The notes below the pieces were generated by a model. That model was not told the origin of the DNA. It made no database searches and saw only the letters and a program-made list of their open reading frames with translations. A DNA stretch of 64,000 bases from an uncultured Erysipelotrichaceae bacterium (GTDB lineage Bacteria > Bacillota_I > Bacilli_A > RFN20 > CAG-826): positions 14,389 to 78,388 of the forward strand of contig CADCGC010000011.1 of the NCBI GenBank assembly GCA_902800905.1. Reading direction: 5' to 3'. The first letter of the stretch is position 1, and each line of letters opens with the position of its first letter. Of the stretch, positions 11,036-31,606 are shown piece by piece. A program made the position numbers and the translations under genes.

Positions 11036-11056
11036 TAATTCAAATAACATTTTCTA

Positions 11057-12603: not shown

Positions 12604-12615
12604 TGAATAGTGGAT

Positions 12616-13353: not shown

Positions 13354-13380
13354 ATATCCTACAAATTCAATATATTAAAT

Positions 13381-13418
13381 AAATTGATTTTCTAAAAGGT
13401 AAATCAGTTTATTTTTTT
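13381..13418 (+). terminator. Rho-independent terminator after the Nudix gene
   Basis: 10-bp stem aaattgattt/aaatcagttt (one G-U) followed by aT7. Confidence 0.6.
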
Positions 13419-13466
13419 ATGAAAATTATTTATATCGATACGACCGATACTTTTTAAGTATGGGTA

Positions 13467-13495
13467 TTGACACATCTATGCAAAGCATATAACAT
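13467..13495 (+). promoter_or_regulatory. Candidate sigma-70-type promoter for riboswitch module 1
   Basis: Perfect -35 TTGACA at 13467-13472. A-T-rich -10 candidates (tataac / taacat) lie 15-17 nt downstream, about 20 nt before the aptamer. Confidence 0.45.
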
Positions 13496-13510
13496 AACAC
13501 GCGAGAGAAG

Positions 13511-13601
13511 AGCAAAACTACAGTAATGTAGTGACGCAAAGCTAGAGGGTCTTAAATAGATAGCCAGTTGCCGCAAAAGAATTAGGTAGACTGGATTTTT
13601 T
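13511..13601 (+). promoter_or_regulatory. c-di-GMP-I (GEMM-I) riboswitch with terminator-type expression platform (copy 1)
   Basis: GCAAAAC-ctaca-GTAA-tgtag-tGACGCAAAGC-tagaGGGTCTTAA...GATAGCCAGTTGCC matches the GEMM-I core (GNRA-capped hairpin, ACGCAAAGC junction, AGCCAGUUGCC 3' strand). CCAGT...ACTGG plus a T6 tract follows and shares nucleotides with the aptamer 3' strand. Confidence 0.85.
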
Positions 13602-13607
13602 ATTTAA

Positions 13608-14399
13608 ATGACAATCAAAAAGAAAAATAACTTATTAAGAATAGTTGCTGCCACATCGATGACAATCTTTTCGTTATTAGCTTTATTTGTTGGTACATTC
13701 GCCTGGTTCTCACTTAATAGCGACACAAATGTAAATGGTGATGGTGGAATGAAAGTTGAAAACCATCTGAAAAGTTTCCAAAAGATGGAAATATTTAGTG
13801 GTGATTATGTTTCTGATAACGGAAATTATTATCGCTTTGAAGCAATTGCTGATGAGACAATTACTATTTCTTATGATGGAAGCGCTGTCGGTAGTTTTGT
13901 AATGGAGGAATATACTGCGTTTAATCGTCATCATCCAATTATGATTGTTTTGACATATGATAACGCCATTAGTTCTATTGATGTAACAGCTACTACAACA
14001 ACTTCTTATTTTGTTGGCGATGTTGCTCATAATGGTTTATCTCAATTTGTTGGAGAAACTTCAAAAAGACCATTATCTTCGTTTATTCACACTTATGCAT
14101 TCGGGTATGAAAACAATTTACCAGCTCCTACAAATGTTAGTGGAACAAATTATTACTATTATGAAGATAGTGTTGTAGAAGGTTGCGCAACTAACGGAGG
14201 AAGTTTTGTAACTCTTTCTGGTAGTTCATTTACATACAATACCACATGTTCGTTTGCCCATTTAAGTGGGGTTTCTTATAAGAAAATAGTCATTATCTTG
14301 GACTATTATCAAGACGCAATTGAATATATAGTTTCTGCATACTTGAAAGATTTAACAAGTACAATCGATTTGATGTGCGATTGGACTTTATCGGTGTAA
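13608..14399 (+). CDS. Secreted 263-aa protein with SipW-type signal peptide, unknown function (module 1 small subunit)
   Basis: MTIKKKNNLLRIVAATSMTIFSLLALFVGTFAWFS: K-rich n-region, hydrophobic core and GT-F-A-W-F motif as in TasA-class SipW substrates. By eye, roughly three quarters identical to the 17561-18355 product. Confidence 0.7.
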   Translation: MTIKKKNNLLRIVAATSMTIFSLLALFVGTFAWFSLNSDTNVNGDGGMKVENHLKSFQKMEIFSGDYVSDNGNYYRFEAIADETITISYDGSAVGSFVMEEYTAFNRHHPIMIVLTYDNAISSIDVTATTTTSYFVGDVAHNGLSQFVGETSKRPLSSFIHTYAFGYENNLPAPTNVSGTNYYYYEDSVVEGCATNGGSFVTLSGSSFTYNTTCSFAHLSGVSYKKIVIILDYYQDAIEYIVSAYLKDLTSTIDLMCDWTLSV

Positions 14400-14401
14400 T
14401 C

Positions 14402-17296
14402 ATGAGAAAGAATAGAGTAGGATTATCAGTTTTAATATCCACTTCAGTAATTACATTACTTGCCACTGTTACTGGTACTTTTGCATGGTTTGCTGAACAC
14501 ACTTTAGATGATCCTGTCGATGTTAATATTGATGGCTCAGCCACTCCATACCATTACGCCAGTGGAACAGGTACAAGTGGAGATCCATATATCATCAGAG
14601 AACCAATCCACTTATATAACTTAGCGTGGTTACAATATTTAGGAACATATAATAAAGATGATAACGATGATGGAGTTATTGATCAACAGTGGTACTTTAA
14701 GCTTGCTGATGATATTCCCGCTAGTGGACTTGATATGAGTGGATACACTCTTCCACCAATTGGAACAGAAGATTATCCGTTCATTGGTAACTTTAATGGA
14801 AACAATAAAAAAATAGTTAATTTAACTACTTCTAATAACGAAACAGATTTTGGCTCAAGAATTCCGCATAATTTGGATTATACCGCACCTGAAATAGTAG
14901 GTTTCTTTGGTGTTGTTGGAAAATTGGATGGAGATTATACCTACAATTCTTCAATTAACACAATCACTAATTTGAATTTAAATAATCTAACAGTTGTGAG
15001 CAAGACAAATAAAACCCTCATCGGATTAGCAGCGGGTTATGTTAATGGCAACATGAGCGGTGTTAAATTAAGTGGCAACGTTACTTTAGATGTTAATGAT
15101 AGAACATGTTCATCCTTAGGTGGAGAATTTACTAAATTATCTGATTACGGTTTGGTTGGGTATTCCACTAAAAGAGGCGGAGGCGGAGATTTTTCACAAA
15201 AAATATCAAAATATTTTGATAGTGATGATGGTGAAGGTCAAGGTGATGACAACGATTGGGGCGGTTCTATTAATCCAAGGCTATACAATAGATGGATTTA
15301 TGATTCTTATAAAGGAACAAGCTATGATCATGAGATTTCTACAATGAGTAGTAGCATCAGCACAATTAACACAATTACAAATAGTGATTATAAGTTAGCG
15401 TTTTCTACAGTAAGCAGAACAAATCAAAGAACATCGCATACACAATATAATAACTACTGCGATCCAGATTATATCGATCAACCTCAAGATGGCTGGTCAG
15501 TTGCAACAAACGTTAGGAATATTGCATATCAACTTAAAGATGGTTGTTATTTACCTTTAAGATTCGCTGATGACGAAAAAACTGGCACACACTCAAAAAA
15601 TACCGGATACATCATTGGTTCATCATCTGGTAACCTTGGAAGTCCAAAACTATCTTCTTATTTTACTGTTAATATAGGGAATTCATTGAAAAATACCAAA
15701 ATCGAAACAACTGGTATTGCTGGTGGATATTCGTATGCAAACAACTATTCATATGTCGATTCAGACTTAGAATTGCTAACATATTCTATTAATGATTCTG
15801 CTTGGTACCGTGTTGAAGATAGTCATAATATTGGCCACACAACAACCAATGCATTAATCAAGGACTTTCCAAAGAAAAGTGTAGAATACCTAGGCTTTGA
15901 AAAATACAACGACTCTAGGAATACTTTACAAACAATATTTGAAAGTGCAACAACGATTCAAGGAATCCATTTTGAGAATTATCAAGTGAGTTCTTCTAAT
16001 TTGTTAAATGTAGCAAGTAATATTAAGATCACAGGAACGACATACAACACAACATATCAACTTCCAAAAGGGTCGATAGACTTTAATCTAAAAAGGACTG
16101 GTTTTATTAATTTCTTTGCCGGAACATATTATTCTTCTGTTATTTATAATTTTGGTTTTTTTACTTTGAATCATGTTTTTAGAAACGGAGGAACTATTTC
16201 TTCAATCAAAAAAATAGATGAGATTTATCAAAATAAGTATTGGAATAGAGGAGCTTTATCAGATTCTATAACAAATCCTAAATTCTTTTATAAGTACTCC
16301 GATGGAACATTTTCAAATATTGTTGCAAATAACGTAACTAGAGCTGCAACAGTTGCTGATCGAGACACTGAATTTGGTAACGATGGATTACTTTTCGATG
16401 TTAAAACTGTTCTTGAAGGAGTTTTAGGAACAAGCGGAAACATATTGAGGCAAGCAGTTAATAATTTATTATTTTATTTTGAAATACCTGTTAATAATGG
16501 TGAATATGCGATGGGAATGCCAGCAAAACCATCTGGAATAACTTCATATACTGGAGCTTATATGATTTATCTCGATATTGGCGCTAATGCTGATTCAATC
16601 GATTCTGATGTAATTACTGGTTATTCTGTGTTAACGGAAACAACTATGATTGCATATCCGCTTGGTGTTGATTTTGATGTTACTGGATCAGGAAATAATG
16701 GCGGTTCATCATTCTGCGTTTATATCGCATCAGGAAAAAAAGGAACAATTTCATTTGAACTAAATAATGAAAGAAATAATATCTCTATAACTAGTACAGC
16801 TAGTCTTTCGGTTTATTCGTATCAAAGTGGTACGTTCGGTACGACGTATACGGTGAGCGGAAATTCTCCTGGCGAATTAGAAGAACCGCCTGGAGGTGGA
16901 ACAAAACTCATTCATATAAGGGTAGAAACTACCGAAAGTGTTGTAGATAACGTATTAATTACCGATATTCTTGATGATGAAGGAAACATCGATTCATCAA
17001 CATATAGTGTTAATGGCGAAAATAAAACAATAGTTCAACTTCAATCTTTAATTGAATCATTAACTGATGATGTTTTGGAAGGATTTAGAACTAGAGATAT
17101 CGCTGTTACATTAACTAGAATTAGTGGCACTAATACATTTGACGCAACTTTGCCAACTCTTCCATGGGAAAATAGTGGTGTGTACGCTATTACATTAGAT
17201 GCAACGGGATTATCTTTAAGAGTTAATTTAGCAAATGATGTAACTGCGACTATTAATGGCACACCTGTGTCAAATAATAGCGTCTACCCATCATAA
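14402..17296 (+). CDS. Large secreted adhesin-like protein (beta-helix/GLUG-like N-terminal region) with SipW-type signal peptide (module 1)
   Basis: ATG at 14402, 2 nt after the upstream stop. MRKNRVGLSVLISTSVITLLATVTGTFAWFAEHT signal. GDPYIIREPIHLYNLAW ... FIGNFNGNNKKIVNL ... FFGVVG ... LIGLAAGYVNG resembles the start of parallel beta-helix surface proteins. No LPXTG or C-terminal TM. Confidence 0.7.
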   Translation: MRKNRVGLSVLISTSVITLLATVTGTFAWFAEHTLDDPVDVNIDGSATPYHYASGTGTSGDPYIIREPIHLYNLAWLQYLGTYNKDDNDDGVIDQQWYFKLADDIPASGLDMSGYTLPPIGTEDYPFIGNFNGNNKKIVNLTTSNNETDFGSRIPHNLDYTAPEIVGFFGVVGKLDGDYTYNSSINTITNLNLNNLTVVSKTNKTLIGLAAGYVNGNMSGVKLSGNVTLDVNDRTCSSLGGEFTKLSDYGLVGYSTKRGGGGDFSQKISKYFDSDDGEGQGDDNDWGGSINPRLYNRWIYDSYKGTSYDHEISTMSSSISTINTITNSDYKLAFSTVSRTNQRTSHTQYNNYCDPDYIDQPQDGWSVATNVRNIAYQLKDGCYLPLRFADDEKTGTHSKNTGYIIGSSSGNLGSPKLSSYFTVNIGNSLKNTKIETTGIAGGYSYANNYSYVDSDLELLTYSINDSAWYRVEDSHNIGHTTTNALIKDFPKKSVEYLGFEKYNDSRNTLQTIFESATTIQGIHFENYQVSSSNLLNVASNIKITGTTYNTTYQLPKGSIDFNLKRTGFINFFAGTYYSSVIYNFGFFTLNHVFRNGGTISSIKKIDEIYQNKYWNRGALSDSITNPKFFYKYSDGTFSNIVANNVTRAATVADRDTEFGNDGLLFDVKTVLEGVLGTSGNILRQAVNNLLFYFEIPVNNGEYAMGMPAKPSGITSYTGAYMIYLDIGANADSIDSDVITGYSVLTETTMIAYPLGVDFDVTGSGNNGGSSFCVYIASGKKGTISFELNNERNNISITSTASLSVYSYQSGTFGTTYTVSGNSPGELEEPPGGGTKLIHIRVETTESVVDNVLITDILDDEGNIDSSTYSVNGENKTIVQLQSLIESLTDDVLEGFRTRDIAVTLTRISGTNTFDATLPTLPWENSGVYAITLDATGLSLRVNLANDVTATINGTPVSNNSVYPS

Positions 17297-17310
17297 TAAT
17301 ATTATGCTTA

Positions 17311-17333
17311 AGACACCATTTTGGTGTCTTTTT
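17311..17333 (+). terminator. Rho-independent terminator ending module 1
   Basis: agacacc-atttt-ggtgtct followed by T4. The same stem sequence ends module 2. Confidence 0.8.
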
Positions 17334-17421
17334 GCTATTGACGTAATAAATAGTAATTGTACAAAGGCTAGTTATTACAAGTTTTTTATTGCTGTAATCA
17401 AATTATATTGATTATTTTTTG

Positions 17422-17451
17422 TTGACAAAATCACACACGCATTAATAAAAT
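17422..17451 (+). promoter_or_regulatory. Candidate sigma-70-type promoter for riboswitch module 2
   Basis: TTGACA at 17422-17427 and TAAAAT at 17446-17451 (18-nt spacer), about 14 nt before the aptamer. Confidence 0.5.
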
Positions 17452-17464
17452 ACAAGTAGAAAAA

Positions 17465-17556
17465 GGCAAAACTACAGTAATGTAGTGACGCAAAGCTATA
17501 GGGTCTTAATTAAGATAGCCAGTTGCCATAAATATGATGGTAAACTGGGTTTTTTA
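17465..17556 (+). promoter_or_regulatory. c-di-GMP-I (GEMM-I) riboswitch with terminator-type expression platform (copy 2)
   Basis: GGCAAAAC-ctaca-GTAA-tgtag-tGACGCAAAGC-tataGGGTCTTAA...GATAGCCAGTTGCC. Terminator CCAGTTGCCAT...ATGGTAAACTGG plus T6 re-uses the aptamer 3' strand. Confidence 0.88.
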
Positions 17557-17560
17557 TTAG

Positions 17561-18355
17561 ATGGCAAAAAAGAAACAAACAACATTAAAAATTGTGGCCG
17601 CCACATCGATGACGATCTTTTCTCTTTTTGCCTTATTCATTGGTACATTTGCTTGGTTCTCCATCAATAACAACACAAATGTTGATGGCGATGGTGGAAT
17701 GAAAGTAGAAAACCATCTCAAGAGTTTCCAACGAATGGAAATATATAGTGGTGAATATGTCACAAAAAGTGGAACAGATTATTATAGATTTGAACCAACG
17801 CCTGACGCTGAAGTAACTATTTCATATGATGGAAGCGCAATTGGTAGTTTTGTAATGGCAGAATATACAGCCTTTGACCGTCATCATCCAATTATGTTTG
17901 TTTTATCTTTTGATAACTCTCTTGGTTCAATTGATATAACCGCTACAACACCAACATCTTATTATGTTGGAGATGTCGCTAATAATGGATTAAACCAAGG
18001 CGTCGGTGGAGATCCGGATACAAAACCTCTATCGTCTTTTATTCATACTTACGCAACAGGGTATGCTGAATATTTACCGGCTCCAACAAATTTAGGTGAT
18101 GGCTCTTTCTATTATTATTCTGATAGTACTATGGAAAGTTATGCTTCTAATGGTGGTAGTTTTGTAACTTTTTCTGGTAGTTCGTTTACATATAATCAAA
18201 CATTCTCATTTGCTCACTTTAGTGGAGTTTCATATAAAAAGATTGTTGTTTTTCTTGATTATTATCAAGAATCAATTGAATATATCGTTTCGGCATATTT
18301 AAAAGATTTAACAGATACAATCGATTTAGCATGTGATTGGAAAATATCGGTGTAA
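17561..18355 (+). CDS. Secreted 264-aa protein with SipW-type signal peptide (module 2 small subunit)
   Basis: MAKKKQTTLKIVAATSMTIFSLFALFIGTFAWFS. Paralogue of 13608-14399. Confidence 0.7.
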   Translation: MAKKKQTTLKIVAATSMTIFSLFALFIGTFAWFSINNNTNVDGDGGMKVENHLKSFQRMEIYSGEYVTKSGTDYYRFEPTPDAEVTISYDGSAIGSFVMAEYTAFDRHHPIMFVLSFDNSLGSIDITATTPTSYYVGDVANNGLNQGVGGDPDTKPLSSFIHTYATGYAEYLPAPTNLGDGSFYYYSDSTMESYASNGGSFVTFSGSSFTYNQTFSFAHFSGVSYKKIVVFLDYYQESIEYIVSAYLKDLTDTIDLACDWKISV

Positions 18356-18361
18356 TTAATT

Positions 18362-21300
18362 ATGACAAAGGCAAGAATTGGATTAATTGGTCTATTATCA
18401 ACATCGGTTGTTGCGATATTAGCGATTGCAACAGGTACTTTTGCATGGTTTGCTGAACATACTTTAAATGATCCGGTTGATGTTAATATCAATGGTTCCG
18501 CTAGTCCATATCACTATGCGAGTGGAACAGGAACAAGTGAAGATCCATATCTCATTAGAGATCCAATCCACCTCTATAACTTAGCGTGGCTTCAATATTT
18601 AGGGACATATAACAAAGATGAAAACGAAGATGGCGCTATTGATAGACAATGGTACTTTAAACTTTCTGATGACATACCCGCTAGTGGACTAGATATGAGT
18701 GGATACACTCTTCCACCAATTGGAACAGAAGATTATCCGTTCATTGGTAACTTTAATGGCAACAATAAAAAAATAGTTAATTTAATTACTTCAAATAATG
18801 AAACAGATTTTGGAGATAGAATTCCACATAACCTAGAATATACCGCTCCTAAAATAGTGGGATTCTTTGGAGTTATCGGTGAAATTGAAGGTGATCCAAT
18901 TGCTACATATGACTCTGATATTAATGAGTTTAAAGATACAACATTAGAGGGATTAACAGTTAAAAGCAATACAGCTAATACATTAATCGGTTTAGCGGCT
19001 GGCTATGTTAATTTAAAAGAACACGTTACCGGTTTATCAAATATCAAAATCGGAGATTCTTCTTCTAAATCGTCATCAATTTCATTAGATGGATGTAGTC
19101 CAATTTCAAATATTACTCCTAATCTTTCTGATTATAGTTTAGTTGGATATAATACAAAAACTGGTAGTGTTTCGAACTACACAAAGAAAGTGTATGAGAA
19201 TTATCATAAAGAAGTTTCAGGTGGACAAGAAGGTGGATTTGGATCATACATCGATTTTAAAGAATTTAATAGATGGCTATACGATTTGCATATAACAAAG
19301 TCGTATGATAAAGGTCCAAACAATCCTGATATAGGCTACGAAGTTATCTTTTCTAGTACTTCCACAAAAAGAATAAATGTTAAAACAGGTGATAACTACA
19401 CACTTTCTTTTAATACTTCATCGACATATTTTGGAAATCCTTCTGTGGCTTTCTATCTAACATACTACACAACATCTTCAGGTGGTGTTTATCGCTTTTA
19501 TAGTTTTGACTTCAGAAATGATAATACCGGAAATTATTACGAAATAGATAATACAAAAACGGATGGTATTTGGTATAATCAAGATTTTACATGGTCCGTT
19601 TCTGGAAGTGGATCATCCAAAAGATACGCAATCACCTTTAATAATTCGGTTGCAACTTTCAGTAATTATTCTAGTTTTGATTTAAAATCTACTAATACAT
19701 CAGAAACTAATTTTCAGCCATATAATGGAAATACTAGAATTGTAAGTTTGAGTTTTGCATATGTTGCTGTTGAGGTTAAAAGATTTAACGATGATAATTA
19801 TACGCCTATATTATTTAACGATGATAAGACAGGAGTTGCCTCAAACAATACTGGATATATTATTGGAAAATCATTAGCAGGAAATTTATATGGTAACTGT
19901 TCTCCGAAAATTTCGTTATATGACAAAAAAACATATTTAAGTAATTCAATTAACGCATCCGGTGCAATTAAGCAAAATGGCATTAAGTATTACAATCAGT
20001 CTACATCAACATGGGACACAATTGCCGACACAGTAGAAGATGGTGTAATTACTGGTTCGTCTCCTTCTTTTGAAAGATATATTAACCCTAGAAATGAAAT
20101 GACAACAATTGTTGATAATTCTGACCGTATTCAAGGAATTCACTTTGATTATCAAAGTGGTGCAGGAAACTTGACAACTAGTAGCACAAAAAGTGCGACT
20201 ATGTATACAATCATGAATCCAACAGCAACAACATATAAAATGCCACGCGGATCTATTGATTTCTATTTGCAAAAACCTGGTTATATTACATTCTTTGCTG
20301 GTTCGTATACAGAAACTGCAAGCGTAAAAATTAATTTTTTCTCGCTTTACAAGATTAATAGACCTGTTTCTAATGGAGTTACTGATTTTAGTTCGATAAG
20401 TTCTATCGATGAAATTTCTAAAATATATAAAACTGCTGTATTCGATAGTAAAAACCCAACTTATGTTTATCAATATGTTGGTGGAAGCGAACCTGCTAGT
20501 CATGGAGAATTGGTTTATGATTTATCTTGTTTGTGGGTAGAAAAAGATAATAGTGATCATACACTCTATTATTTTGAAATACCTGTTGGAACAGGAGAAT
20601 TCGCTATGGGTGCGGTTAATTCAGCTCATAGTCCTGCTTCAACCACTCAAGGCGCTTATATGATGTATTTGGATTTAGGTGCTAATGGACAATCAGTTGG
20701 TGATACATTAATGGACATTCACCAAGTAAAAACATCACAAAATAGTGCTTCTTATCCTCAAGGTGTTGATTTTAACATTACAGGTATTTCATCAACTACT
20801 GGTGGTGATTCATTATGTTTAAGAATTCCAAATATCTCCTCCGCTTCAACTGGAACAACTACATTTGCGGTTGCTTCAAACATAACAATTACGGACTCCA
20901 TCACAAACTCAGACGCAACCGTTGTTTATAAAAAATCTGCTGCTGTCTTAAATAATGCATCAACTAACGTAACAGATTCGTCAGGATCAATTACTGGTGG
21001 TTATACTTATATAAGAGCAACGATAACAACGCCAGCTGGAGAAAATTGGCTAATAGAGTATTTAGAAAATCTGGATGGCTCTGGTGGACGATATACTACC
21101 ATTACTCAAAATGGAAATAATAGGACAATATCGGACTTGCCAACAATATATACATCTAATATTAGCGAAGCCAAAGGAAGAGATGATTCATTCATTGCGG
21201 TCAGTTTTGATTTTACAGGTAGCGATTTCACAATAACAGCCGCTGATTATTCAACTGCGTCAACGATTGACTTAACGATACCAACTTCTGAACTTGGTTC

Positions 21301-21376
21301 AACGACATTTAGTAATGTTATATTTAAAACAGGATATTCAACATTGAAAGTCAATGGATCTGCTTATCCATCCTAA
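18362..21376 (+). CDS. Large secreted adhesin-like protein with SipW-type signal peptide (module 2)
   Basis: MTKARIGLIGLLSTSVVAILAIATGTFAWFAEHT. The N-terminal ~180 aa are nearly identical to the 14402-17296 product and the remainder diverges, with conserved islands (IQGIHF, GSIDF, YFEIPV, GAYM.YLD.GAN). Ends ...AYPS. Confidence 0.7.
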   Translation: MTKARIGLIGLLSTSVVAILAIATGTFAWFAEHTLNDPVDVNINGSASPYHYASGTGTSEDPYLIRDPIHLYNLAWLQYLGTYNKDENEDGAIDRQWYFKLSDDIPASGLDMSGYTLPPIGTEDYPFIGNFNGNNKKIVNLITSNNETDFGDRIPHNLEYTAPKIVGFFGVIGEIEGDPIATYDSDINEFKDTTLEGLTVKSNTANTLIGLAAGYVNLKEHVTGLSNIKIGDSSSKSSSISLDGCSPISNITPNLSDYSLVGYNTKTGSVSNYTKKVYENYHKEVSGGQEGGFGSYIDFKEFNRWLYDLHITKSYDKGPNNPDIGYEVIFSSTSTKRINVKTGDNYTLSFNTSSTYFGNPSVAFYLTYYTTSSGGVYRFYSFDFRNDNTGNYYEIDNTKTDGIWYNQDFTWSVSGSGSSKRYAITFNNSVATFSNYSSFDLKSTNTSETNFQPYNGNTRIVSLSFAYVAVEVKRFNDDNYTPILFNDDKTGVASNNTGYIIGKSLAGNLYGNCSPKISLYDKKTYLSNSINASGAIKQNGIKYYNQSTSTWDTIADTVEDGVITGSSPSFERYINPRNEMTTIVDNSDRIQGIHFDYQSGAGNLTTSSTKSATMYTIMNPTATTYKMPRGSIDFYLQKPGYITFFAGSYTETASVKINFFSLYKINRPVSNGVTDFSSISSIDEISKIYKTAVFDSKNPTYVYQYVGGSEPASHGELVYDLSCLWVEKDNSDHTLYYFEIPVGTGEFAMGAVNSAHSPASTTQGAYMMYLDLGANGQSVGDTLMDIHQVKTSQNSASYPQGVDFNITGISSTTGGDSLCLRIPNISSASTGTTTFAVASNITITDSITNSDATVVYKKSAAVLNNASTNVTDSSGSITGGYTYIRATITTPAGENWLIEYLENLDGSGGRYTTITQNGNNRTISDLPTIYTSNISEAKGRDDSFIAVSFDFTGSDFTITAADYSTASTIDLTIPTSELGSTTFSNVIFKTGYSTLKVNGSAYPS

Positions 21377-21377
21377 T

Positions 21378-21405
21378 AGACACCTTCCATTAAGGTGTCT
21401 TTTTT
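21378..21405 (+). terminator. Rho-independent terminator ending module 2
   Basis: agacacc-ttccattaa-ggtgtct followed by T5. Confidence 0.8.
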
Positions 21406-21502
21406 AACCAATTAATTGGTTAATTGAGAATAATAAAAACATTAAGAAAATAATTAAGAAATTCGTATTTTCTCCCTCTTATTAATATGAGAGGGCTTTT
21501 TT

Positions 21503-21833
21503 ATGAACGAATACAAAAAAAGCATTGTTCAAAGATGGTGACTTTGAATTAGAAGTAACTATTTCACCAGAAGAAAAAACTATATGGATGACACAAAAGC
21601 AGATGGAGTTATTGTTTGAAAAAACACATTCGACTATTGCAGGTTATATTAAAGATGTATTAAAAACATATAAATCAGCCATTGACAATTCTGACAAAAG
21701 TATTGTCGATAATGTCGAAAATATTGACATTTATATTGAAATTATTGACAAGAGCATTAAAAGAAAGCTGAATTATAACCTTAAAATTGTCTTTGCAGTA
21801 GCCCAAAGAGTAAAGTCAAATAGAGGTATATAA
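21503..21833 (+). pseudogene. RhuM-family protein remnant (frameshifted and truncated)
   Basis: ATG at 21503 gives MNEYKKSIVQRW-stop. After an A7 tract (21514-21520) the next frame continues FKDGDFELEVTISPEEKTIWMTQKQMELLF, the typical RhuM N-terminus. The rest is degenerate and short. Confidence 0.55.
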
Positions 21834-21878
21834 TTACAACAATTTCTAGATAATTATTTAAAAGAATATGAATCGTTA

Positions 21879-22314: not shown

Positions 22315-23229
22315 ATGAATTTCTTTTTTGACAAGATTATTAACGTTAAGGACAATCCGATTACCGAATCAATTCAATCCTCAATTGCAATTATTATTAC
22401 TGCTGGATTAATTGCTTTAGTGTACTTCCTAAATATTCCTAATCCAAATCTTATTCTCTTTACAGGTTTAATTGCTTTAACTTCTATATTTGGATTTATC
22501 CCAGGAGCGTTTGCTCTTGTGGGTGTATATGTGTACACTCTCTTATTTTTCTCAACTAATCATTCATTTGTTGATTTCACTGAACAGAACGCTATTAAGA
22601 CAATTGTCTCATTTATCACATCCACAATGTGTTTTGCTTTTGTTGGAACATTAAACCACTGGTTTAAGAAGAGTATTCTCATCATGCTTCAAACCAATAG
22701 CGAACTAAAAAACGAAAAGAAATCATTAGAACAAATATCATTAAAAGATGAATTAACAGATATTAAGAATAGACATTCTCTTAGAATTGATTTCCCTTCA
22801 TATGTTGGAGAAGAAATTCATCTAATGATATTTGATGTTGACAATTTCAAGAAATTCAATGACACATATGGTCATTCTCTTGGTGATGAAGTTCTCAAAG
22901 TAGTGGGTTCTAAAACCAAAGGAATCTTTGGTGAAAAATCAGTCTATCGTTTTGGAGGAGATGAATTTGTCGTCATTGTTAAAGAAGACACATTCATTAA
23001 CTTCAAAGAAAAGATTCAAACACTAATGAAAGAAGTGGAACATATGACCATAGAAGATAATGAATTAATCATCCATCTCTCTGTTGGATTCACATATGGA
23101 GTTCCTACCGATAACGGCGATCTTAGACAAATGATCGACTTCGCTGATGAGTTACTCTATGAAGTAAAGAAAAGTGGCAAAAATAACCTAATTGGTAAAC
23201 GATACGAATTGGACTTAATGGATAGTTAG
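22315..23229 (+). CDS. Membrane-bound diguanylate cyclase (GGDEF)
   Basis: 304-aa ORF with N-terminal TM helices, then DELTDIKNRHSL ... FDVDNFKKFNDTYGHSLGD ... RFGGDEF. Confidence 0.85.
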   Translation: MNFFFDKIINVKDNPITESIQSSIAIIITAGLIALVYFLNIPNPNLILFTGLIALTSIFGFIPGAFALVGVYVYTLLFFSTNHSFVDFTEQNAIKTIVSFITSTMCFAFVGTLNHWFKKSILIMLQTNSELKNEKKSLEQISLKDELTDIKNRHSLRIDFPSYVGEEIHLMIFDVDNFKKFNDTYGHSLGDEVLKVVGSKTKGIFGEKSVYRFGGDEFVVIVKEDTFINFKEKIQTLMKEVEHMTIEDNELIIHLSVGFTYGVPTDNGDLRQMIDFADELLYEVKKSGKNNLIGKRYELDLMDS

Positions 23230-23232
23230 AAG

Positions 23233-23479: not shown

Positions 23480-24616
23480 ATGAAAAAATCAAAAGTTGTC
23501 ATTCCTGCATTAGGTTTAATCGCTTTATCAACAGCCGCCTCTATTACAGGTACTGTTGCATGGTTCTCTGCAAACCAAAGCGTTTCAATTAAAGGTATGA
23601 CAGTTTCTACAAAAGTTGGAGATAACTTATTAGTCTCTGGCACAAACGCAAACGCAGCAAGTTATAGTACATCATTAGAACAAGAACGTACAGGTGTTCT
23701 CGAACCAGTTTCATCCGTTGATGGTGTTGACTTCTACTACACCGCAACAGACAACGTCCAAAATGGTGGTGACGCTATTGCAGACGAATACGTCTTATAT
23801 GCTGAAGGTACTTCATTATCAAATACTAATGCTGGAAAAACAAAATATGACGCTGATTTCCAAACCAATTATGCTTTAGAAGGTGTTGTTTCTGATTCTA
23901 ACGTCTATTATGGTTTCATCGATTACGCTTTCTATGTGAAAGCCGTTAATGGTGGTGCTGCTGACAAATACTTAATTTTACACGACTTAAACATCACTTA
24001 TGATGGAGATATCATTTCTGAAAAAGCATGGAGAGTTGCTGTCTTTGATGAAGCTGCTTCCGAATACGTTGCAATCGAAGGTGATGTCGCAGTAGGCGCA
24101 AGAAAAGCCATGCTTACTCCTTCAGGAGCTGCTAACTTCACAACTGGACAAGCTGTCAGCTCCACAAGTGGAACAGGTTCTGTCACATACACAAGTGCTG
24201 CTTGGCACTTAGACACAATCGCTGCTGGAGCAACCGAATATAACAAGATTACTGTTAGATTATGGCTCGAAGGCGAAGACAACACATGTAACAACGATAC
24301 ATTTGCAAGCTTAACAGCAAACTGGAAACTTGATGTTGAAGTTAAATTAGAAGACGCCAACACCAACGCTATCACAAATATTAGATCAGTCGCAGCTGTT
24401 GCTACAAAATCAACAACTACTGGTACTGTCGAACTTCATGGTGATACAGCTTCCTCATATCAATGGTATTTAGTTACTGGTAATTCTGCTATTAGTGGTG
24501 CAACCAGTGCCTCATACACAAACGATGGTGCTGCTAGAGATGTTTACTGCATCGTCAAGACCGCTGCTGGTAGAACATATAAATCCAATGTTCTCAGCCT
24601 TGATGCTGGTGCATAA
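23480..24616 (+). CDS. TasA/camelysin-like secreted protein with SipW-type signal peptide; putative major fibre subunit
   Basis: AAGGAG RBS 9 nt before the ATG at 23480. MKKSKVVIPALGLIALSTAASITGTVAWFSANQS signal. C-terminal core ITVRLWLEGEDNTCNND...NWKLDVEVKL shares the W-L-E-G motif with the downstream paralogues. It has its own promoter and a strong terminator. Confidence 0.7.
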   Translation: MKKSKVVIPALGLIALSTAASITGTVAWFSANQSVSIKGMTVSTKVGDNLLVSGTNANAASYSTSLEQERTGVLEPVSSVDGVDFYYTATDNVQNGGDAIADEYVLYAEGTSLSNTNAGKTKYDADFQTNYALEGVVSDSNVYYGFIDYAFYVKAVNGGAADKYLILHDLNITYDGDIISEKAWRVAVFDEAASEYVAIEGDVAVGARKAMLTPSGAANFTTGQAVSSTSGTGSVTYTSAAWHLDTIAAGATEYNKITVRLWLEGEDNTCNNDTFASLTANWKLDVEVKLEDANTNAITNIRSVAAVATKSTTTGTVELHGDTASSYQWYLVTGNSAISGATSASYTNDGAARDVYCIVKTAAGRTYKSNVLSLDAGA

Positions 24617-24667: not shown

Positions 24668-24777
24668 TTTTTCTCGATCGCATTTCTTATATACACGCGT
24701 TCTTCTAATTTTTTATTTATTTAAAATAATGCTTGCATACTTGTTTTATTTAGTGTTATTTTATTAACGAGAAAAAA

Positions 24778-24898
24778 GCACAACCATAGTGATATGGTGC
24801 CGCAAAGCTAAAGGGTCTTAAGAAGAAGGATTAAGATAGCCAGTTGCCTTAGAGAGTCGTTCTCGGCCAATGCGTTGGATGATAGGCAACTGGCTTTT
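24778..24898 (+). promoter_or_regulatory. c-di-GMP-I (GEMM-I) riboswitch with long terminator-type expression platform (copy 3)
   Basis: GCACAAC-CATA-GTGA-TATGG-tGCCGCAAAGC-taaaGGGTCTTAAG...GATAGCCAGTTGCC. The 11-nt AGCCAGTTGCC (24838-24848) is perfectly complementary to GGCAACTGGCT (24885-24895), which is followed by TTTT. Confidence 0.85.
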
Positions 24899-24951
24899 GA
24901 TTCTCTATTGGGACATTAATTTAGCCTTTCCTTCTAGGCACACTCTCACTT

Positions 24952-25785
24952 ATGGAATACAATATTAGGTACGTTAACAGGAGAAAAAGACGCATTCGTG
25001 CGGCTATCATTGGTGGCATCTCGACAGTAGTGGTTGCCTCTTTAAGCATAGTTGCATTCTTGGGTCGATTTGTTGGTACATTTACTGTATCTTTAGATAC
25101 AGGAACTGTTAAACTTACTCTTGCTGAAGAAAGTGCATTCCTCACCTCAACATCATTCCTAAGAGTGAACAATCTAGCGCCATTTGAAGAATATACATAC
25201 ACATGGTTTAACGATGAATATTCTGAAGATGAGTTAGATAATGATATTTCTAATTACAAAATTGGATATCATTATGCTTCTGATGGAACGACCATCAAAA
25301 ACGTCAAGTTCTTTAAATATACTTTCTATTTGAAGAATGTTGGGTCAACTAAAGCTTTTTACGACTGCAAGATCAGAATTCTTGAGTCTAAAGCTTCAAA
25401 CGATAAAAGAAAACTCGATGATACATTAAGAGTTATGGTTTATCGTAATCCACTCAACGGATCTCATAATAAGAAAATATATGGTAAGGCCGTTAGACCT
25501 CGCACTAATGAACAAGGCGAACTTGATTATCGTCCTCCAATTTCAATGTCAGAAGAAATGGCGAGCTATTTAAGCCAACCATTCCCTGGATATGTTGATG
25601 ATACATTTGTATCGGGTGAATTAATCGCACAATATAAACGTGTTGAAATTGCCGTAAGTGAAGTAACAAGGTACACCCTCGTCACCTGGTTAGAAGGATA
25701 TATGTCCGGAACCGAAGCAGAGGAAAACGCACCTATTGGTGCAACAATCAAATTAGGAGTTGAAATAAACGCATATGAAAATTAA
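24952..25785 (+). CDS. TasA-like protein with Arg-rich N-terminus and TM segment but atypical cleavage region (candidate membrane-anchored base/anchor subunit)
   Basis: First ORF after riboswitch 3. RRKRRIRAAIIGGISTVVVASLSIVAFLGRFVGTFTVSLDTGTVKLTL lacks the A-W-[FY] motif. YTFYLKNVGST and VTWLEGYMSG...GATIKLGVEINA resemble TasA/camelysin core motifs. Confidence 0.6.
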   Translation: MEYNIRYVNRRKRRIRAAIIGGISTVVVASLSIVAFLGRFVGTFTVSLDTGTVKLTLAEESAFLTSTSFLRVNNLAPFEEYTYTWFNDEYSEDELDNDISNYKIGYHYASDGTTIKNVKFFKYTFYLKNVGSTKAFYDCKIRILESKASNDKRKLDDTLRVMVYRNPLNGSHNKKIYGKAVRPRTNEQGELDYRPPISMSEEMASYLSQPFPGYVDDTFVSGELIAQYKRVEIAVSEVTRYTLVTWLEGYMSGTEAEENAPIGATIKLGVEINAYEN

Positions 25786-26734
25786 TAAGAAATTAATCGT
25801 TGCTTCTTTATCAACTGCCCTTGGTCTAGGAATTGTCGGTAGTGTTACTGGCACTGTCGCCTGGTATCAATATTCAACTAAAGCCATCACTTCTATCGTT
25901 GGTGCAAACGCATCTCAAAGTGGTTTATTAAGAATCTCTACAGATGACAACAACTATAAGAAGGATCTTTACACAACTGATATCTTAGGTGCTGCAGAAA
26001 ACGCTGAAAGTAATGACTTTGACGGCAATTTTGAACCTGTCACTTTTGGTGGCGTTGCAAAAGACGGAGCTATGCCTTCTGATGCTTATCTTAATCCAAG
26101 ATATGGTCATCAACCATTAAATGAATGGAAATCAGCTAAAGGCAAAAACTACGAATATTTGCAATATGACCTCTACCTCAAAGCTGAAAAATATGACGAA
26201 ACTGCAAATGATTACATCCCAGTAGCTGGTTTACCAATCTACTTATCGAACATGGAAATCATTAATGGAACAGTCGGAAAAGACATCGCTGATGCTGTGT
26301 TTGTTCACATCGCAGTTGATGGAGGAGACAACTTCCTCATCAGTAGAACTGGTGCTGATGTTAACACTTATGGTGAATTAGATTTAGATAACGATTCCCA
26401 TAATGATCCATATTTTGGATATCAACCAGACATCGCTGACCCAGCTCATTACGACGATCCAGTTGCTTATGGCACAGATGGAACAAAGAACACTTCCTAT
26501 AGTGTTATTGCCGGTGCTAATTCTATTATTTCTCCTAGAGGAGAGGATGGCAGAATTGATCCAGCAACTGCAACAAAACTTTGTGACACCATTGATGGTG
26601 GCATTAAGTTAACAGTCACTATTTGGCTCGAAGGTTGGGCTATGGCTCAATTATGGAATCCAACTCAAACCGCTAACGCTCAATTCAAAATCGGTATGAC
26701 TTTTGATGTCGGCAGAGGCGCCTTTGAAGATTAA
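25775..26734 (+). CDS. TasA/camelysin-like secreted protein with SipW-type signal peptide (minor subunit paralogue)
   Basis: MKINKKLIVASLSTALGLGIVGSVTGTVAWYQYST. C-terminal LTVTIWLEGWAM...AQFKIGMTFDVG. Overlaps the preceding gene by 11 nt. Confidence 0.7.
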   Translation: MKINKKLIVASLSTALGLGIVGSVTGTVAWYQYSTKAITSIVGANASQSGLLRISTDDNNYKKDLYTTDILGAAENAESNDFDGNFEPVTFGGVAKDGAMPSDAYLNPRYGHQPLNEWKSAKGKNYEYLQYDLYLKAEKYDETANDYIPVAGLPIYLSNMEIINGTVGKDIADAVFVHIAVDGGDNFLISRTGADVNTYGELDLDNDSHNDPYFGYQPDIADPAHYDDPVAYGTDGTKNTSYSVIAGANSIISPRGEDGRIDPATATKLCDTIDGGIKLTVTIWLEGWAMAQLWNPTQTANAQFKIGMTFDVGRGAFED

Positions 26735-26748
26735 GGAGGGAACTAACT

Positions 26749-27735
26749 ATGAAAATGAATAAGAAATTAGTAGTTGCCACCTTATCAACCGTCATGGGTA
26801 TTGGTTTAGTTGGTAGTATCTCTGGTACTGTTGCTTGGTACCAATATTCCACAAGATCAATGGCAACCTTAATTGGTACAGAAGTATCTCACGCTGGCAC
26901 AGTCACATTAAGTACCGACGGAACAAACTACTCTGGTAGACTTTGGACCAACGATATCTTAGGTTCTAACAGTGTGAAATTCCATCAAGCTACCTTTGGT
27001 AAGCTTAATAATGATGGTTCTTTACCAGCTCAAGCATACTTAAATCCAGAAGCCGGCTATGGCGCTCTCAATTTATGGGACAAAGCAGTAGCAGGCGTGG
27101 ATTATGTTCAATTTGACCTCTATTTCAGAGCTCTTGAACTCAAAAATTCAAGTGATTTATATGAACGTGTCGCAAAAGACATCTATTTAACTGATGTCGT
27201 CATCGAAGATTTGGATAGTGGTAAAGATATTTCTGACGCAGTCAGAGTTCACTTCCAAAACAAGAATGACGCTACTGATAACTGGTTCTTATCAAAAGAA
27301 GCAGTCACAGGACAAAAAGTCGGTGCCTATCTTGACTTAGATAGAGATGGTGATCCAGATAAGGAACGTAGTGAATACATCTACGAACCAGATCCAAGTG
27401 CACCAGACTGCAAATATGGTCAATTTAGTGGCGACACACCACTTGAACAATTAGATACCAAAGGTATCGATGATACAATCGCGTCTGAAAACGCATCAAC
27501 AGGCGCCCTTGAAGATACAACTGGTAAATTCCACGTTACAACCTTAAATGCAACTGAATACGCTGCTAATAGCAACACAGATGTTTGCTACACAGTTACT
27601 ATTTGGCTTGAAGGTTGGCACGTCTTTAGCGGCGCAACCGACGCTATCTGGGATTTACAAAGTACATACGATGCAAGCTTCCATGTTGGTTTCACCTTTA
27701 ATGCTGGAAGTAATGTATTCGATGTTGATGCATAA
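26749..27735 (+). CDS. TasA/camelysin-like secreted protein with SipW-type signal peptide (minor subunit paralogue)
   Basis: AAGGAGGG RBS. MKMNKKLVVATLSTVMGIGLVGSISGTVAWYQYST. C-terminal YTVTIWLEGWHV...ASFHVGFTFNAG. Confidence 0.7.
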   Translation: MKMNKKLVVATLSTVMGIGLVGSISGTVAWYQYSTRSMATLIGTEVSHAGTVTLSTDGTNYSGRLWTNDILGSNSVKFHQATFGKLNNDGSLPAQAYLNPEAGYGALNLWDKAVAGVDYVQFDLYFRALELKNSSDLYERVAKDIYLTDVVIEDLDSGKDISDAVRVHFQNKNDATDNWFLSKEAVTGQKVGAYLDLDRDGDPDKERSEYIYEPDPSAPDCKYGQFSGDTPLEQLDTKGIDDTIASENASTGALEDTTGKFHVTTLNATEYAANSNTDVCYTVTIWLEGWHVFSGATDAIWDLQSTYDASFHVGFTFNAGSNVFDVDA

Positions 27736-27787
27736 TCATTACAATTTCGTTTAAAAATATAAAAATATCTGGAGAAAGGAGGAGCAA

Positions 27788-28945
27788 ATGAAAAGCATAA
27801 CTAAAGTTAGATTATTAATTTTAGCGATGAGCGCTGTTTCAGTTGTGTCAATGGTTGGATCAACCGCTGCGACTGTTGCTTGGTACGTCAATAGTACTGG
27901 TGCGAAAGTCACATATACAGGAACATCTGTTCAAAAGTCTACAAGACTTACTTTAGGATTAGTTGACGAAGAGAACAAATTCACTGACGCAGATTTAGTC
28001 ACATACAACTTAGAAAGAGAATCAGGCGCAACAGTTGATGGTAAGACCATTGTCTGGTCAAAATCATCAAGCATCATAAATGATGTTCTCACTAAATACC
28101 TAACTGAATATGGCTATGCAACATATCTCCTTTCTCCAGTAACTACAAAAGCTAGGGCAATTGATAGCACAGATGGTTTAACGCTTTACAAAGCTCCAGA
28201 AACATCTCAAACCGTTTTAGATGAAACTGCAGATCCAAAATCTTATATCACTCTCCCATTTGCATTCAAAATTGTTAATAGTAGCAATGAGAAAGTTCAA
28301 GATAAAGAAATTTGGTTAACCAATTCAATGGTTACGACAAGTTTAGCTAATAATGATGGTAATAGTGTGATTAGACTCTTTGTTGACAATCATCACAATA
28401 GTGAAAAATTCATTGTTAGACCTGCAGATAACTCTGATTCAACTGGTGAGACTGTAGTTGGAGGACTTTTAAACCTCGCTGGTGGAGATAGCACTGTCTA
28501 TGACTATGATTCAAATACTTTACACGAATATATTTATGGCGATTACGATAAGTCTGGTGGATTTGCACCAATTTATTCCGATTCAACCTATGAATATTTC
28601 CCTGGATTTGATGAAAATGAATATGACAATGTCAATGACACTCCATACGAAACAGCGTCGACATTCTATGCCAAACACAATAAGAATTGTTACCCAATAA
28701 CGAATTATAATGAACTTCAAAACAGATTCTTGAAGGCTCACTATCATACGATGGGAACCATTAGACCAACATCCACAAATGGTGTTTATAGTGGCGGTAA
28801 ACCAATCGCATATACAGAAAGCGCTTCAAAAATTGGATATTCAACAATCTCGATTTATGTTGAAGGATGGGATCATGCCTTAACCGATGACAAAATCGAT
28901 GTACAATTCAATCTTTCAATGACATTTGAAATTAATACACTTTAA
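27788..28945 (+). CDS. TasA/camelysin-like secreted protein with SipW-type signal peptide (minor subunit paralogue)
   Basis: AAGGAGGAG RBS. MKSITKVRLLILAMSAVSVVSMVGSTAATVAWYVNST. C-terminal STISIYVEGWDHAL...VQFNLSMTFEIN. Confidence 0.7.
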   Translation: MKSITKVRLLILAMSAVSVVSMVGSTAATVAWYVNSTGAKVTYTGTSVQKSTRLTLGLVDEENKFTDADLVTYNLERESGATVDGKTIVWSKSSSIINDVLTKYLTEYGYATYLLSPVTTKARAIDSTDGLTLYKAPETSQTVLDETADPKSYITLPFAFKIVNSSNEKVQDKEIWLTNSMVTTSLANNDGNSVIRLFVDNHHNSEKFIVRPADNSDSTGETVVGGLLNLAGGDSTVYDYDSNTLHEYIYGDYDKSGGFAPIYSDSTYEYFPGFDENEYDNVNDTPYETASTFYAKHNKNCYPITNYNELQNRFLKAHYHTMGTIRPTSTNGVYSGGKPIAYTESASKIGYSTISIYVEGWDHALTDDKIDVQFNLSMTFEINTL

Positions 28946-28953
28946 TTCCTTTT

Positions 28954-30064: not shown

Positions 30065-30078
30065 GGAGAAAGTTAGGT

Positions 30079-31593: not shown

Positions 31594-31606
31594 TTAAAAG
31601 GATTAT

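Follow-up and report, generated by a model that had tools for sequence, protein, structure and literature searches.

We examined a stretch of 64,000 nucleotides (nt) from an uncultured Erysipelotrichaceae bacterium (hereafter the window), in which two consecutive, co-oriented units of ~3.95 kb each encode a small and a large protein downstream of a riboswitch of the cyclic diguanosine monophosphate (c-di-GMP) I class. Unit 1 begins with a promoter-like site (13467..13495, + strand; TTGACA-N17-TAACAT, scoring 10/12 and ranking second in 13300-25000) that ends 5 nt before aptamer 1 (13501..13575, +). A small gene of 263 amino acids (aa; 13608..14399, +) and a large gene of 964 aa (14402..17296, +) follow, and the unit closes with an intrinsic terminator (17310..17336, +), in which a 9-base-pair stem, AAGACACC/GGTGTCTT (17310-17330), is followed by a T-run. 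Unit 2 has the same order: a promoter-like site (17422..17451, +; TTGACA-N18-TAAAAT, 11/12, top-ranked in the same interval) directly 5' of aptamer 2 (17456..17531, +), a small gene of 264 aa (17561..18355, +), a large gene of 1004 aa (18362..21376, +), and an intrinsic terminator (21378..21406, +) with the stem AGACACC...GGTGTCT (21378-21400) and a T-run. The total count of sigma-70-like matches in 13300-25000 is not above chance, and the evidence for the unit promoters is their position and rank. The true starts of the large genes are the ATG codons at 14402 and 18362, 2 and 6 nt past the small-gene stops. The small genes have no recognisable Shine-Dalgarno sequence (13596-13607, 17549-17560), the U-run of the leader terminator stopping 2-5 nt short of the ATG, and a GGTG 6-13 nt upstream is the sole Shine-Dalgarno-like element of the large genes. 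Judged from sequence, each unit is a self-contained transcription unit comprising a promoter, a riboswitch with a competing terminator, a small gene, a large gene, and a terminator. A preliminary description of this DNA had listed the same two-unit layout, including a common agacacc/ggtgtct terminator stem; every listed element was found where it had been placed, and the stem is present at both unit ends.

Small protein 1 has a K-rich N-terminus, a hydrophobic helix, the motif GTFAWFS, a predicted beta-sandwich, and a conserved C-terminal CDW; the two small proteins are 72% identical, which agrees with the high similarity noted earlier. Large protein 1 carries GTFAWFAEHT, a conserved N-terminal GTGTSxDPYxI...FxGNFNGNNKKIxNL domain, and a beta-rich body with conserved islands, and large protein 2 scores 810 bits against the hidden Markov model of the family. 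At the nucleotide level, direct repeats of 77-91% identity at 3950-3960 nt spacing link the units from the aptamer to ~300 nt inside the large gene, beyond which the matches are short islands only. For the large proteins, identity in 60-residue windows is 75% across residues 1-60 and 86-93% across residues ~30-180; it is 59% in the first ~350 aa and falls to ~30% in the rest, with conserved islands, and both proteins terminate in ...YPS (...VYPS and ...AYPS). The alignment thus reproduces the near-identical N-terminus of ~180 aa, the divergence, the islands, and the shared end that had been described, and the windowed comparison also bears out the proposed pattern of a conserved N-terminal and a variable C-terminal part, though the latter keeps family-wide motifs. 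A profile search of the window found no extra or silent cassette copies.

A third c-di-GMP-I aptamer (24767..24851, +) heads an operon further downstream (the riboswitch-3 operon). Aptamers 1 and 3 match RF01051 with 60.9 and 57.8 bits, respectively, against a gathering score of 35, and the best clan match of aptamer 2 is RF03167, whose gathering score of 59 it passes with 59.9 bits. The name of the latter model, "c-di-GMP-I-GGC", was considered for aptamer 2 and rejected: the aptamer exceeds the gathering score by 0.9 bits only, and the alignment reads GACGCAAAG against GACGCGAAg in the model, with an A where the diagnostic G is expected. Because an A stands at this position, aptamer 2 is best classed, on its sequence, as a canonical c-di-GMP-I aptamer. 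The two cassette aptamers had been called near-identical members of GEMM-I; the Rfam matches uphold the class, and the near-identity fails at the ligand-contact base G20 (Vc2 numbering), which is A in unit 1 and G in unit 2.

In all three leaders the 3' strand of the aptamer, CCAGUUGCC, has an alternative partner downstream: GGUAGACUGG in leader 1 (expression platform 13564..13606, +), GGUAAACUGG in leader 2 (17519..17556, +), and GGCAACUGG in leader 3 (24840..24902, +). Each of these complements runs straight into a U-run that ends a few nt before the start codon (2 nt before the ATG in leader 1). Leader 1 as a whole folds with z = -3.1, leader 2 forms a CCAGUUGCCAU...AUGGUAAACUGG hairpin followed by GUUUUUUA (-14.8 kcal/mol, z = -3.8), and leader 3 forms a long hairpin followed by CUUUUGAUU. 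In the minimum free energy folds of all three full leaders, the terminator hairpin forms and the second helix of the aptamer is lost. Because the terminator hairpin competes for the aptamer's 3' strand, all three leaders are predicted to be ON switches, as the preliminary description had supposed when it called them c-di-GMP-induced.

The arrangement recurs well beyond this genome. When one genome of each GTDB species was scanned, 80 loci came up, and uncultured Bacilli of the rumen or gut (labelled "Bacilli bacterium", Erysipelotrichaceae, Acholeplasmatales, Anaeroplasmataceae, Ca. Enterosoma, or Clostridium sp. CAG:288) account for nearly all of them; the few bins named after other phyla are suspected binning errors. 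A covariance model built from 11 aptamers recovered 77 aptamers in these loci. Among the 64 loci with enough upstream sequence, 46 have a same-strand aptamer that precedes the large gene by 760-1370 nt, and 4 have one directly before it. An open reading frame (ORF) of the small family lies immediately 5' of the large-family ORF in 63 of 95 cases. The two-helix fold is retained across 76 distinct cassette aptamers, with 95.8% of cells paired and 205 cells changed on both sides; 11 of the 17 pairs show such double-sided changes, and slid controls are 24-39% paired. When the 77 leaders were folded, a terminator using the aptamer 3' strand appeared in at least 41, a lower bound, as the length limit of the test excluded several shorter terminator versions. 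Distant contigs carry pairs of 232+974, 265+1006, and 251+1222 aa, all preceded by a c-di-GMP-I aptamer, one of them by two in tandem; neighbouring, more distant cassette variants likewise have their own riboswitches, and loci with several cassettes recur within the family. Riboswitch, small gene, and large gene therefore look, from sequence comparison, like a conserved module in uncultured Bacilli. Our literature search found no description of this module, nor of c-di-GMP riboswitches governing such genes in these lineages. Locus L004 has two c-di-GMP-I aptamers in direct tandem (9025-9100, 9104-9181, +) ahead of one small/large pair, and its third aptamer (8590-8669, -) heads a divergent three-gene cassette variant (290+507+1027 aa). 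Variants of 282+504+1007 aa, with their own riboswitch, lie downstream of the small/large pair in L006 and L007.

Neither protein could be matched to a known Pfam, NCBIfam, or PDB family. Scans of the small and large proteins against Pfam and NCBIfam matched no model, and the same scans of 31 large-family members found no recurrent domain and no catalytic domain. The large family has >1100 detectable relatives of ~900-1290 aa, nearly all metagenomic and all unnamed, the sole name among the named ones being "hypothetical protein". A look-up in an index of contigs gave no entry for the large protein of the window itself. The small family comprises 393 representative clusters (profile search at E<=1e-3, clusters at 50% identity); most of the 150 clusters listed are ~250-340 aa long and matched over their whole length. 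At moderate confidence, AlphaFold models the large protein with an N-terminal helix, a low-confidence linker, and a long beta-rich body (predicted local distance difference test, pLDDT, 80.2; predicted template modelling score, pTM, 0.53), and the small protein with an N-terminal helix and a beta-sandwich (pLDDT 78.7, pTM 0.73). With Foldseek, the large model had no match at E<=1e-3 in PDB or BFVD, nor had the small model in PDB; leukocidin, discoidin, and CBM32 fold matches were rejected at TM-scores of 0.05-0.35. Profile searches of PDB sequences found nothing for the small family. The N-terminal ~180 residues are the best-conserved part across the whole large family, and invariant motifs also run through the C-terminal two thirds (NTGY, IxGIHF, LPKGSIDF, YFEIPVxxGEYAMG, YLDxGAN, YPxGVDF). 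The conserved islands seen between the two units thus appear, by alignment, to be the core of the family, and the C-terminal two thirds do not appear to be freely variable. The large-protein C-termini have no LPXTG and no hydrophobic tail, and Pfam finds no adhesin domain in them, which sets them apart from the sortase-anchored type of microbial surface components recognizing adhesive matrix molecules (MSCRAMMs). What had been described as paralogous adhesin cassettes are indeed paralogous and led by riboswitches, and the adhesin part of that description finds no domain or fold match.

The two families share an N-terminal signal. A [T/S/A]-x-A-W-F motif near residue 27-32 occurs in 104 of 120 large-family and 164 of 174 small-family representatives, preceded by 3-4 K/R residues and a ~19-residue hydrophobic stretch (mean Kyte-Doolittle value 1.8), with T/S/A at -3 and A at -1. 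By sequence the AWF segment fits the -3/-1 rule of signal peptidase I, and the n-region/h-region/T-x-A-aromatic-F pattern of SipW-type signals is present in both families; we take the site to resemble the TasA-type T-W-A|A-F. A GTVAWY/GTVAWF head is also found on a 378-aa protein, whose gene lies after the cassettes and before the riboswitch-3 operon, and on four products of that operon, with lengths of 319, 328, 385, and 162 aa. The 378-aa protein is the only one that comes near TIGR04088, the NCBIfam model of SipW-dependent signal peptides (15.9 bits, E 0.011, below the cut-off of 19). In hhalign the small family was linked to the operon subunits through a 33-residue signal segment only (probability 90.6%). 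Because the similarity goes no further than that region, we rejected the idea of the small protein as a diverged subunit of the TasA/TapA-like or operon type.

A candidate enzyme for such signals is encoded 12-20 kb downstream of the cassettes, inside the riboswitch-3 operon: a divergent, putative SipW-like signal peptidase of the endoplasmic reticulum (ER)/archaeal type (334 aa; 33814..34818, +), with a ~100-aa insertion. Its catalytic-type Ser box (NSMEP) and His box (MTHRI) were read by eye from the translation. Against the models for signal peptidase I of the SipW or archaeal/ER type, it aligns with NF046067 through its C-terminal half alone (E 1.6e-10, 40.8 bits, cut-off 190) and matches TIGR02228 with E 3.3e-5 (23.8 bits, cut-off 51.85). 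The part of the operon that precedes it (24952..33817, +) contains four intact genes for AWY-type fibre-subunit-like proteins (277, 319, 328, and 385 aa), a split one (162 + 223 aa), an AAA+ ATPase gene, and a gene for a 736-aa protein; two EAL phosphodiesterase genes and a PNP/UDP-family gene form its 3' end (34805..40165, +). Parts of the operon adjoin cassettes in at least 8 other genomes (L001, L090, L015, L030, L040, L041, L049, L073), and in L030 and L073 a cassette riboswitch comes directly after the operon end. This recurrent synteny strengthens the tie between the cassettes and the riboswitch-3 unit that had been drawn from the window, and a single c-di-GMP regulon with a dedicated peptidase is well supported by genomic context.

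Comparison with related strains points to exchange between cassettes. A rumen metagenome-assembled genome (locus L001), with flanking genes that share 92-98% identity with those of the window, has a single cassette at the same site, between a NUDIX gene and a RhuM-like gene. In the upstream region, the promoter, and the aptamer, this cassette follows unit 1 (82-95% in sliding windows; against unit 2, 45-58% upstream of the aptamer and 86% over the aptamer core common to both). The small gene and the N-terminal part of the large gene follow unit 2 (mostly 83-99%, lowest window 78%; 89% for the small gene against that of unit 2), and the variable body is distinct from both units, with 45% protein identity to unit 1. 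By these comparisons the L001 cassette is a mosaic, a sign of recombinational shuffling between strains, and the diversification proposed earlier gains a third variable region. The more distantly related L090 likewise carries one cassette at this position, with the operon after it; P0122, a small protein from a metagenome, is a chimera of unit 2 and unit 1; and one contig, whose small gene 1 is 98% identical, ends shortly after the start of the large gene. Between units 1 and 2, synonymous divergence (dS) amounts to 0.7-1.0 in the small gene, falls to 0.3-0.4 over residues 60-150 of the large gene, and reaches saturation farther 3', and the ratio of nonsynonymous to synonymous divergence (dN/dS) is below 1 wherever measurable. 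Since dS itself is heterogeneous and lowest in the conserved stretch, these values indicate, as far as sequence can, gene conversion or recombination in the conserved 5' part beyond purifying selection alone; the per-window alignment and dN/dS check suggested earlier thus yields a divergence that is not uniform, with a conserved N-terminal part and a divergent rest. Repeat analysis found no invertible promoters and no convincing inverted repeats flanking the promoters, and an invertible or phase-variable switch was rejected on that ground. No long homopolymer or simple-sequence tracts were noticed on reading the genes, a reading that included no dedicated tandem-repeat search. Because both copies own a complete promoter and riboswitch, the variation appears to lie at the population level rather than in phase variation. 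The L001 small gene resembles the unit that matches its large-gene N-terminus, not its variable body; because it tracks the N-terminus in this way, any contact between the small and large proteins is more likely to involve the conserved N-terminal module of the large protein.

Taken as a whole, the locus is best explained, at a probability we put at roughly 55%, as a set of riboswitch-controlled, exported, strain-variable, two-protein surface cassettes with SipW-like processing. At a low level of the second messenger, the terminator hairpin would take the aptamer 3' strand CCAGUUGCC and transcription would halt just before the small gene; with ligand bound, the same strand would be locked in the aptamer and the small and large genes would be transcribed. 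Both proteins would then leave the cytoplasm via Sec, a prediction made because each has a K/R-rich segment, a ~19-residue hydrophobic helix, and a near-invariant [T/S]-x-A-W-F. Cleavage between A and W would most likely be carried out by the SipW-like peptidase of the riboswitch-3 operon, which would also cut the AWY/AWF fibre-subunit-like proteins of that operon. The large protein would be a ~1000-residue, beta-rich surface protein with a conserved N-terminal module and core and hypervariable surface stretches, and would form the specificity-bearing or antigenic part; the small beta-sandwich protein would be an obligate partner (an anchor, assembly factor, or adaptor), like TapA for TasA. 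The conserved 5' kilobase, consisting of the leader, the small gene, and the large-gene N-terminus, would serve as a homology arm for duplication, deletion, and swaps of variable regions, and exchange over this arm would leave related strains with differing cassette numbers and alleles. The ligand response, the SipW-like cleavage, the surface adhesion, and the role of the small protein are steps that we infer.

Several observations pull the other way. Of the 64 testable loci, 14 have no riboswitch, and aptamers 1 and 3 carry an A at position 20, so the inducer could include 3'3'-cyclic GMP-AMP (3'3'-cGAMP; PMC6140456). The small and large N-termini have no TIGR04088 match even at E 10 (cut-off 19 bits), and the peptidase lies far under the cut-offs of the SipW models, with no PDB relative by sequence and no Pfam match; the dependence of both proteins on SipW that had been claimed at the outset is accordingly left without backing from these models. 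The AlphaFold helix runs straight through AWF in both proteins, which also fits an uncleaved signal-anchor, and in most distant loci the operon is outside the fetched flanks of +/-6-10 kb. Pfam and NCBIfam find no adhesin, lectin, immunoglobulin (Ig), or enzyme domain in either protein, there is no significant Foldseek match, so that the word adhesin is drawn from context alone, and the invariant acidic core residues E694, E701, D725, and D757 could be catalytic.

The helix across the motif and the failure of TIGR04088 to match the cassette N-termini would both be expected if the two proteins were uncleaved signal-anchors, that is, type-II membrane proteins on the membrane of a lineage with reduced or absent peptidoglycan. 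AWF would then be an interfacial aromatic belt, and the peptidase and fibre operon would be uninvolved. In the models the continuous helix spans residues 3-34 of the large and 4-38 of the small protein, the operon falls outside the fetched flanks in many distant loci, and some orders of the host clade (unclassified Bacilli, Acholeplasmatales, Anaeroplasmataceae, Ca. Enterosoma) are predicted to be deficient in peptidoglycan (PMC10868615). Yet a near-invariant [TS]xAWF with small residues at -3/-1 in three unrelated families looks like a protease site and not like a generic anchor. The operon subunits, which are encoded beside the SipW-like peptidase, carry the same motif, and the 18 residues past the motif in the large model are of low confidence and linker-like. 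On this balance we think uncleaved anchors somewhat unlikely, and we prefer exported cassettes with SipW-like processing.

A broader proposal goes further than processing and unites the cassettes and the riboswitch-3 operon in an undescribed system of surface fibres, induced by c-di-GMP and independent of sortase, in gut and rumen Bacilli with reduced genomes. The peptidase would expose a common W-F/W-Y N-terminal strand, the operon subunits would polymerise by donor-strand exchange, and each cassette pair would supply a small adaptor and a ~1000-aa specificity module that is mounted on the fibre, or nucleates it, via that strand; strains would exchange specificity modules by recombination over the conserved 5' kilobase. 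We regard this whole as unlikely. The closest known system to the locus is the tapA-sipW-tasA matrix-fibre operon of B. subtilis (also B. cereus CalY/TasA and C. perfringens sipW-bsaA). There, as would be the case at this locus, the genes for a dedicated ER/archaeal-type peptidase and for the proteins it cuts lie together, those proteins have in common a special signal that ends in T-x-A|(A/W)-F, and a small partner, TapA (253 aa; ~250 aa here), accompanies the polymer-forming protein. A role in biofilm formation or sessility may be shared, by analogy. TapA and TasA are both SipW substrates, and the N-terminal strand of mature TasA drives donor-strand assembly (PMC10151520, PMC9674648). The differences are considerable: the cassette partner is a ~1000-aa multidomain protein rather than a ~260-aa fibre subunit, the peptidase, unlike SipW proper, has the ~100-aa insertion and scores far below the SipW cut-off, control would be by c-di-GMP riboswitches and not by SinR/Spo0A, and the AAA+ ATPase and 736-aa protein of the operon have no Bacillus counterpart. 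The small protein has no sequence match to TasA (Peptidase_M73), TapA, or camelysin; neither TasA nor TapA is among the 50 matches listed by Foldseek for the small model against PDB; and profile searches of PDB sequences found nothing for the operon subunits or the peptidase. TapA/SipW/TasA is therefore best seen as the closest functional analogue, one that the cassettes may work like, and not as a homologue by the tests run. Our literature search found no description of SipW combined with c-di-GMP riboswitch control.

The invariant E/D/R residues in the core motifs YFEIPVxxGEYAMG, YLDxGAN, and YPxGVDF raise the question of whether the large protein is instead an enzyme, either secreted or on the surface (for example a lyase or hydrolase of polysaccharides with a beta-helix, or an IgA1-protease-like protein), with the small protein as its inhibitor, chaperone, or carbohydrate-binding partner. 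The lone PDB sequence match of the large-family profile is 3n6z_A, a "putative immunoglobulin A1 protease", the best, non-significant fold matches of the small model are CBM32 modules, and the hosts inhabit the polysaccharide-rich rumen and gut. The 3n6z match is weak (E 0.014), however, and limited to the N-terminal motif GxGTxxDPYxI ... YFKL ... PIG ... FxGxFxGNxKxIxNL, which is the sole sequence link to a solved structure; the pattern over the aligned stretch reads GxGTxxxPYxI...FDG..xxIxN. We take this motif to be a typical entry module of beta-helix/GLUG-type surface proteins, an assumption that Pfam Glug (PF07581) leaves unconfirmed, with a match in 1 of the 31 members scanned, weak at E 0.98. 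The want of a catalytic domain in those 31 members and of a significant fold match also speaks against an enzyme, and predicted c-di-GMP ON control, linkage to a fibre-like operon, and strain hypervariability typify surface or adhesion proteins, not housekeeping enzymes. An enzymatic cassette seems to us distinctly unlikely beside two-protein surface cassettes.

The bases at position 20 suggest a further possibility, equally hard to credit, in which the duplication subdivided regulation and not binding specificity: unit 1 and the operon, with aptamers of the GEMM-Ib type, would answer to 3'3'-cGAMP or to both ligands, and unit 2 to c-di-GMP only. With the G20 equivalent taken as the base immediately 5' of the first GC pair (GC(A)AA in aptamer 1), aptamers 1 and 3 are A20/A47/C92 and aptamer 2 is the canonical G20/A47/C92. 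An A also stands at this position in ~70% of the cassette aptamers (52 A vs 22 G in a rough pattern count over the 77 aptamers, loci L008-L087); to our knowledge this share is unusually high for GEMM-I, a comparison for which the background frequency is unconfirmed. With G20A, Vc2 accepts 3'3'-cGAMP as well as c-di-GMP, and riboswitches that carry A20 in nature sense cGAMP or are bispecific (PMC6140456), so that aptamers 1 and 3, to judge from this base, may be bispecific, with cGAMP included. But A20 aptamers keep tight c-di-GMP binding (PMC6140456), and no cGAMP synthase was seen within the window. The A is shared with the GEMM-Ib (cGAMP) riboswitches of Geobacter (PMC6140456); A20 alone, unlike those riboswitches, makes an aptamer bispecific and not cGAMP-specific, and the context there is Hypr-GGDEF and exoelectrogenesis, as against c-di-GMP enzymes here. 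Three GGDEF and two EAL genes lie in 40 kb (717-1877, 1896-3017, 22315-23229, 34805-36361, 37094-40165), a dense set of c-di-GMP signalling genes around the cassettes. The nearest, which lies after the cassettes and before the operon, encodes a GGDEF diguanylate cyclase (22315..23229, +; PF00990, E 1.9e-28) that has canonical GDEVL and GGDEF motifs and keeps the GTP-specifying Asp of GDEVL. Because of these five genes and the canonical form of the nearest GGDEF, c-di-GMP is most likely the ligand, as gene content suggests. That the two units are simply an old tandem duplication drifting neutrally, with an N-terminus under stronger structural constraint and differences that play no role in specificity, would suit the family-wide conservation of the N-terminal ~180 residues and the low dN/dS, but is very improbable given the fall of dS in the conserved part, the single mosaic cassette with a different variable region in so close a strain, the chimeric small protein, and the recurrence of multi-cassette loci.

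Two other kinds of system resemble the cassettes as we prefer to read them, that is, as strain-variable surface cassettes under riboswitch control. Firmicutes adhesin and pilus genes under c-di-GMP riboswitches include CD2831 and pilA1 of C. difficile and, with the Bc2-cap riboswitch, a gene of B. thuringiensis; in such systems, a GEMM-type aptamer in the 5' leader of a surface gene acts as a termination ON switch, and high c-di-GMP leads to attachment. Their products are either type IV pilins or proteins that bind collagen and are anchored through sortase/LPXTG, whereas the cassettes have no LPXTG and no recognised adhesin domain and differ further in their obligate small partner gene, shared AWF signal, and tandem recombining copies. 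The variable surface lipoprotein loci of Mycoplasma, and mosaic adhesin genes, are multi-allelic, recombining surface cassettes, and like them the present locus has tandem paralogues with conserved 5' ends (signal and N-terminus), divergent bodies, and mosaic alleles, with copy number and allele content varying between close strains. Unlike those loci, it showed no sign of a programmed switch in the repeat analysis or on reading of the genes.

Both protein families are large, wholly unannotated, and confined to uncultured host-associated Bacilli, including some orders predicted to lack peptidoglycan, and the conserved riboswitch offers a functional handle, placing them in the "settle down" programme of c-di-GMP. 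If they are surface or attachment factors, they would be candidates for sortase-free attachment of these gut and rumen lineages to host, feed particles, or other microbes, and strain-level shuffling would bear on colonisation specificity and on metagenomic strain tracking. The AWF N-terminus and divergent SipW-like enzyme would extend the known SipW-type secretion and assembly systems, and G20 and A20 aptamers on sister cassettes provide a natural test case for the tuning of GEMM-I ligand specificity.

The remaining observations concern the surroundings of the cassettes. The gene for the 378-aa exported protein (23480..24616, +; N-terminus TGTVAWFSANQ) has its own promoter-like site, no riboswitch, and a strong terminator (24636-24666). 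It is strain-variable, with 48% identity between the window and L001, and L001 has two AWF-headed paralogues, at 10454-11461 (-), which is extra and inverted, and at 11870-12946 (+). The split subunit of the riboswitch-3 operon consists of overlapping ORFs of 162 aa (28954-29442, AWY-headed) and 223 aa (29393-30064); it is one 361-aa gene in L090 (17898-18983) and has contiguous matches in L015, and is split or frameshifted here. Between the fibre-like genes and the SipW-like peptidase gene, 30079-33817 encodes the ATPase, which is AAA_5/McrB-like (504 aa), and the 736-aa protein, which has a long acidic, Pro/Glu-rich region; both are conserved in L090, L015, L030, L025, and L032. Downstream of the operon, 41619-43649 encodes a lipoprotein-like protein of 676 aa that bears InlB B-repeat/Flg_new repeats and DUF6273; a related protein of 1063 aa is encoded upstream of the L090 cassette. 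An AAA_14/DUF4143 ATPase gene is split into 11315-11578 (87 aa) and 11680-12603 (307 aa), probably by a frameshift, as a pseudogene, or through a sequencing error; it is intact (456 aa) in the near-identical contig L088 (7627-8997). The RhuM-like gene just 3' of unit 2 is broken into two pieces of ~100 aa each (21525-21833 and 21879-22193), and its L001 copy is intact at 301 aa (7831-8736).

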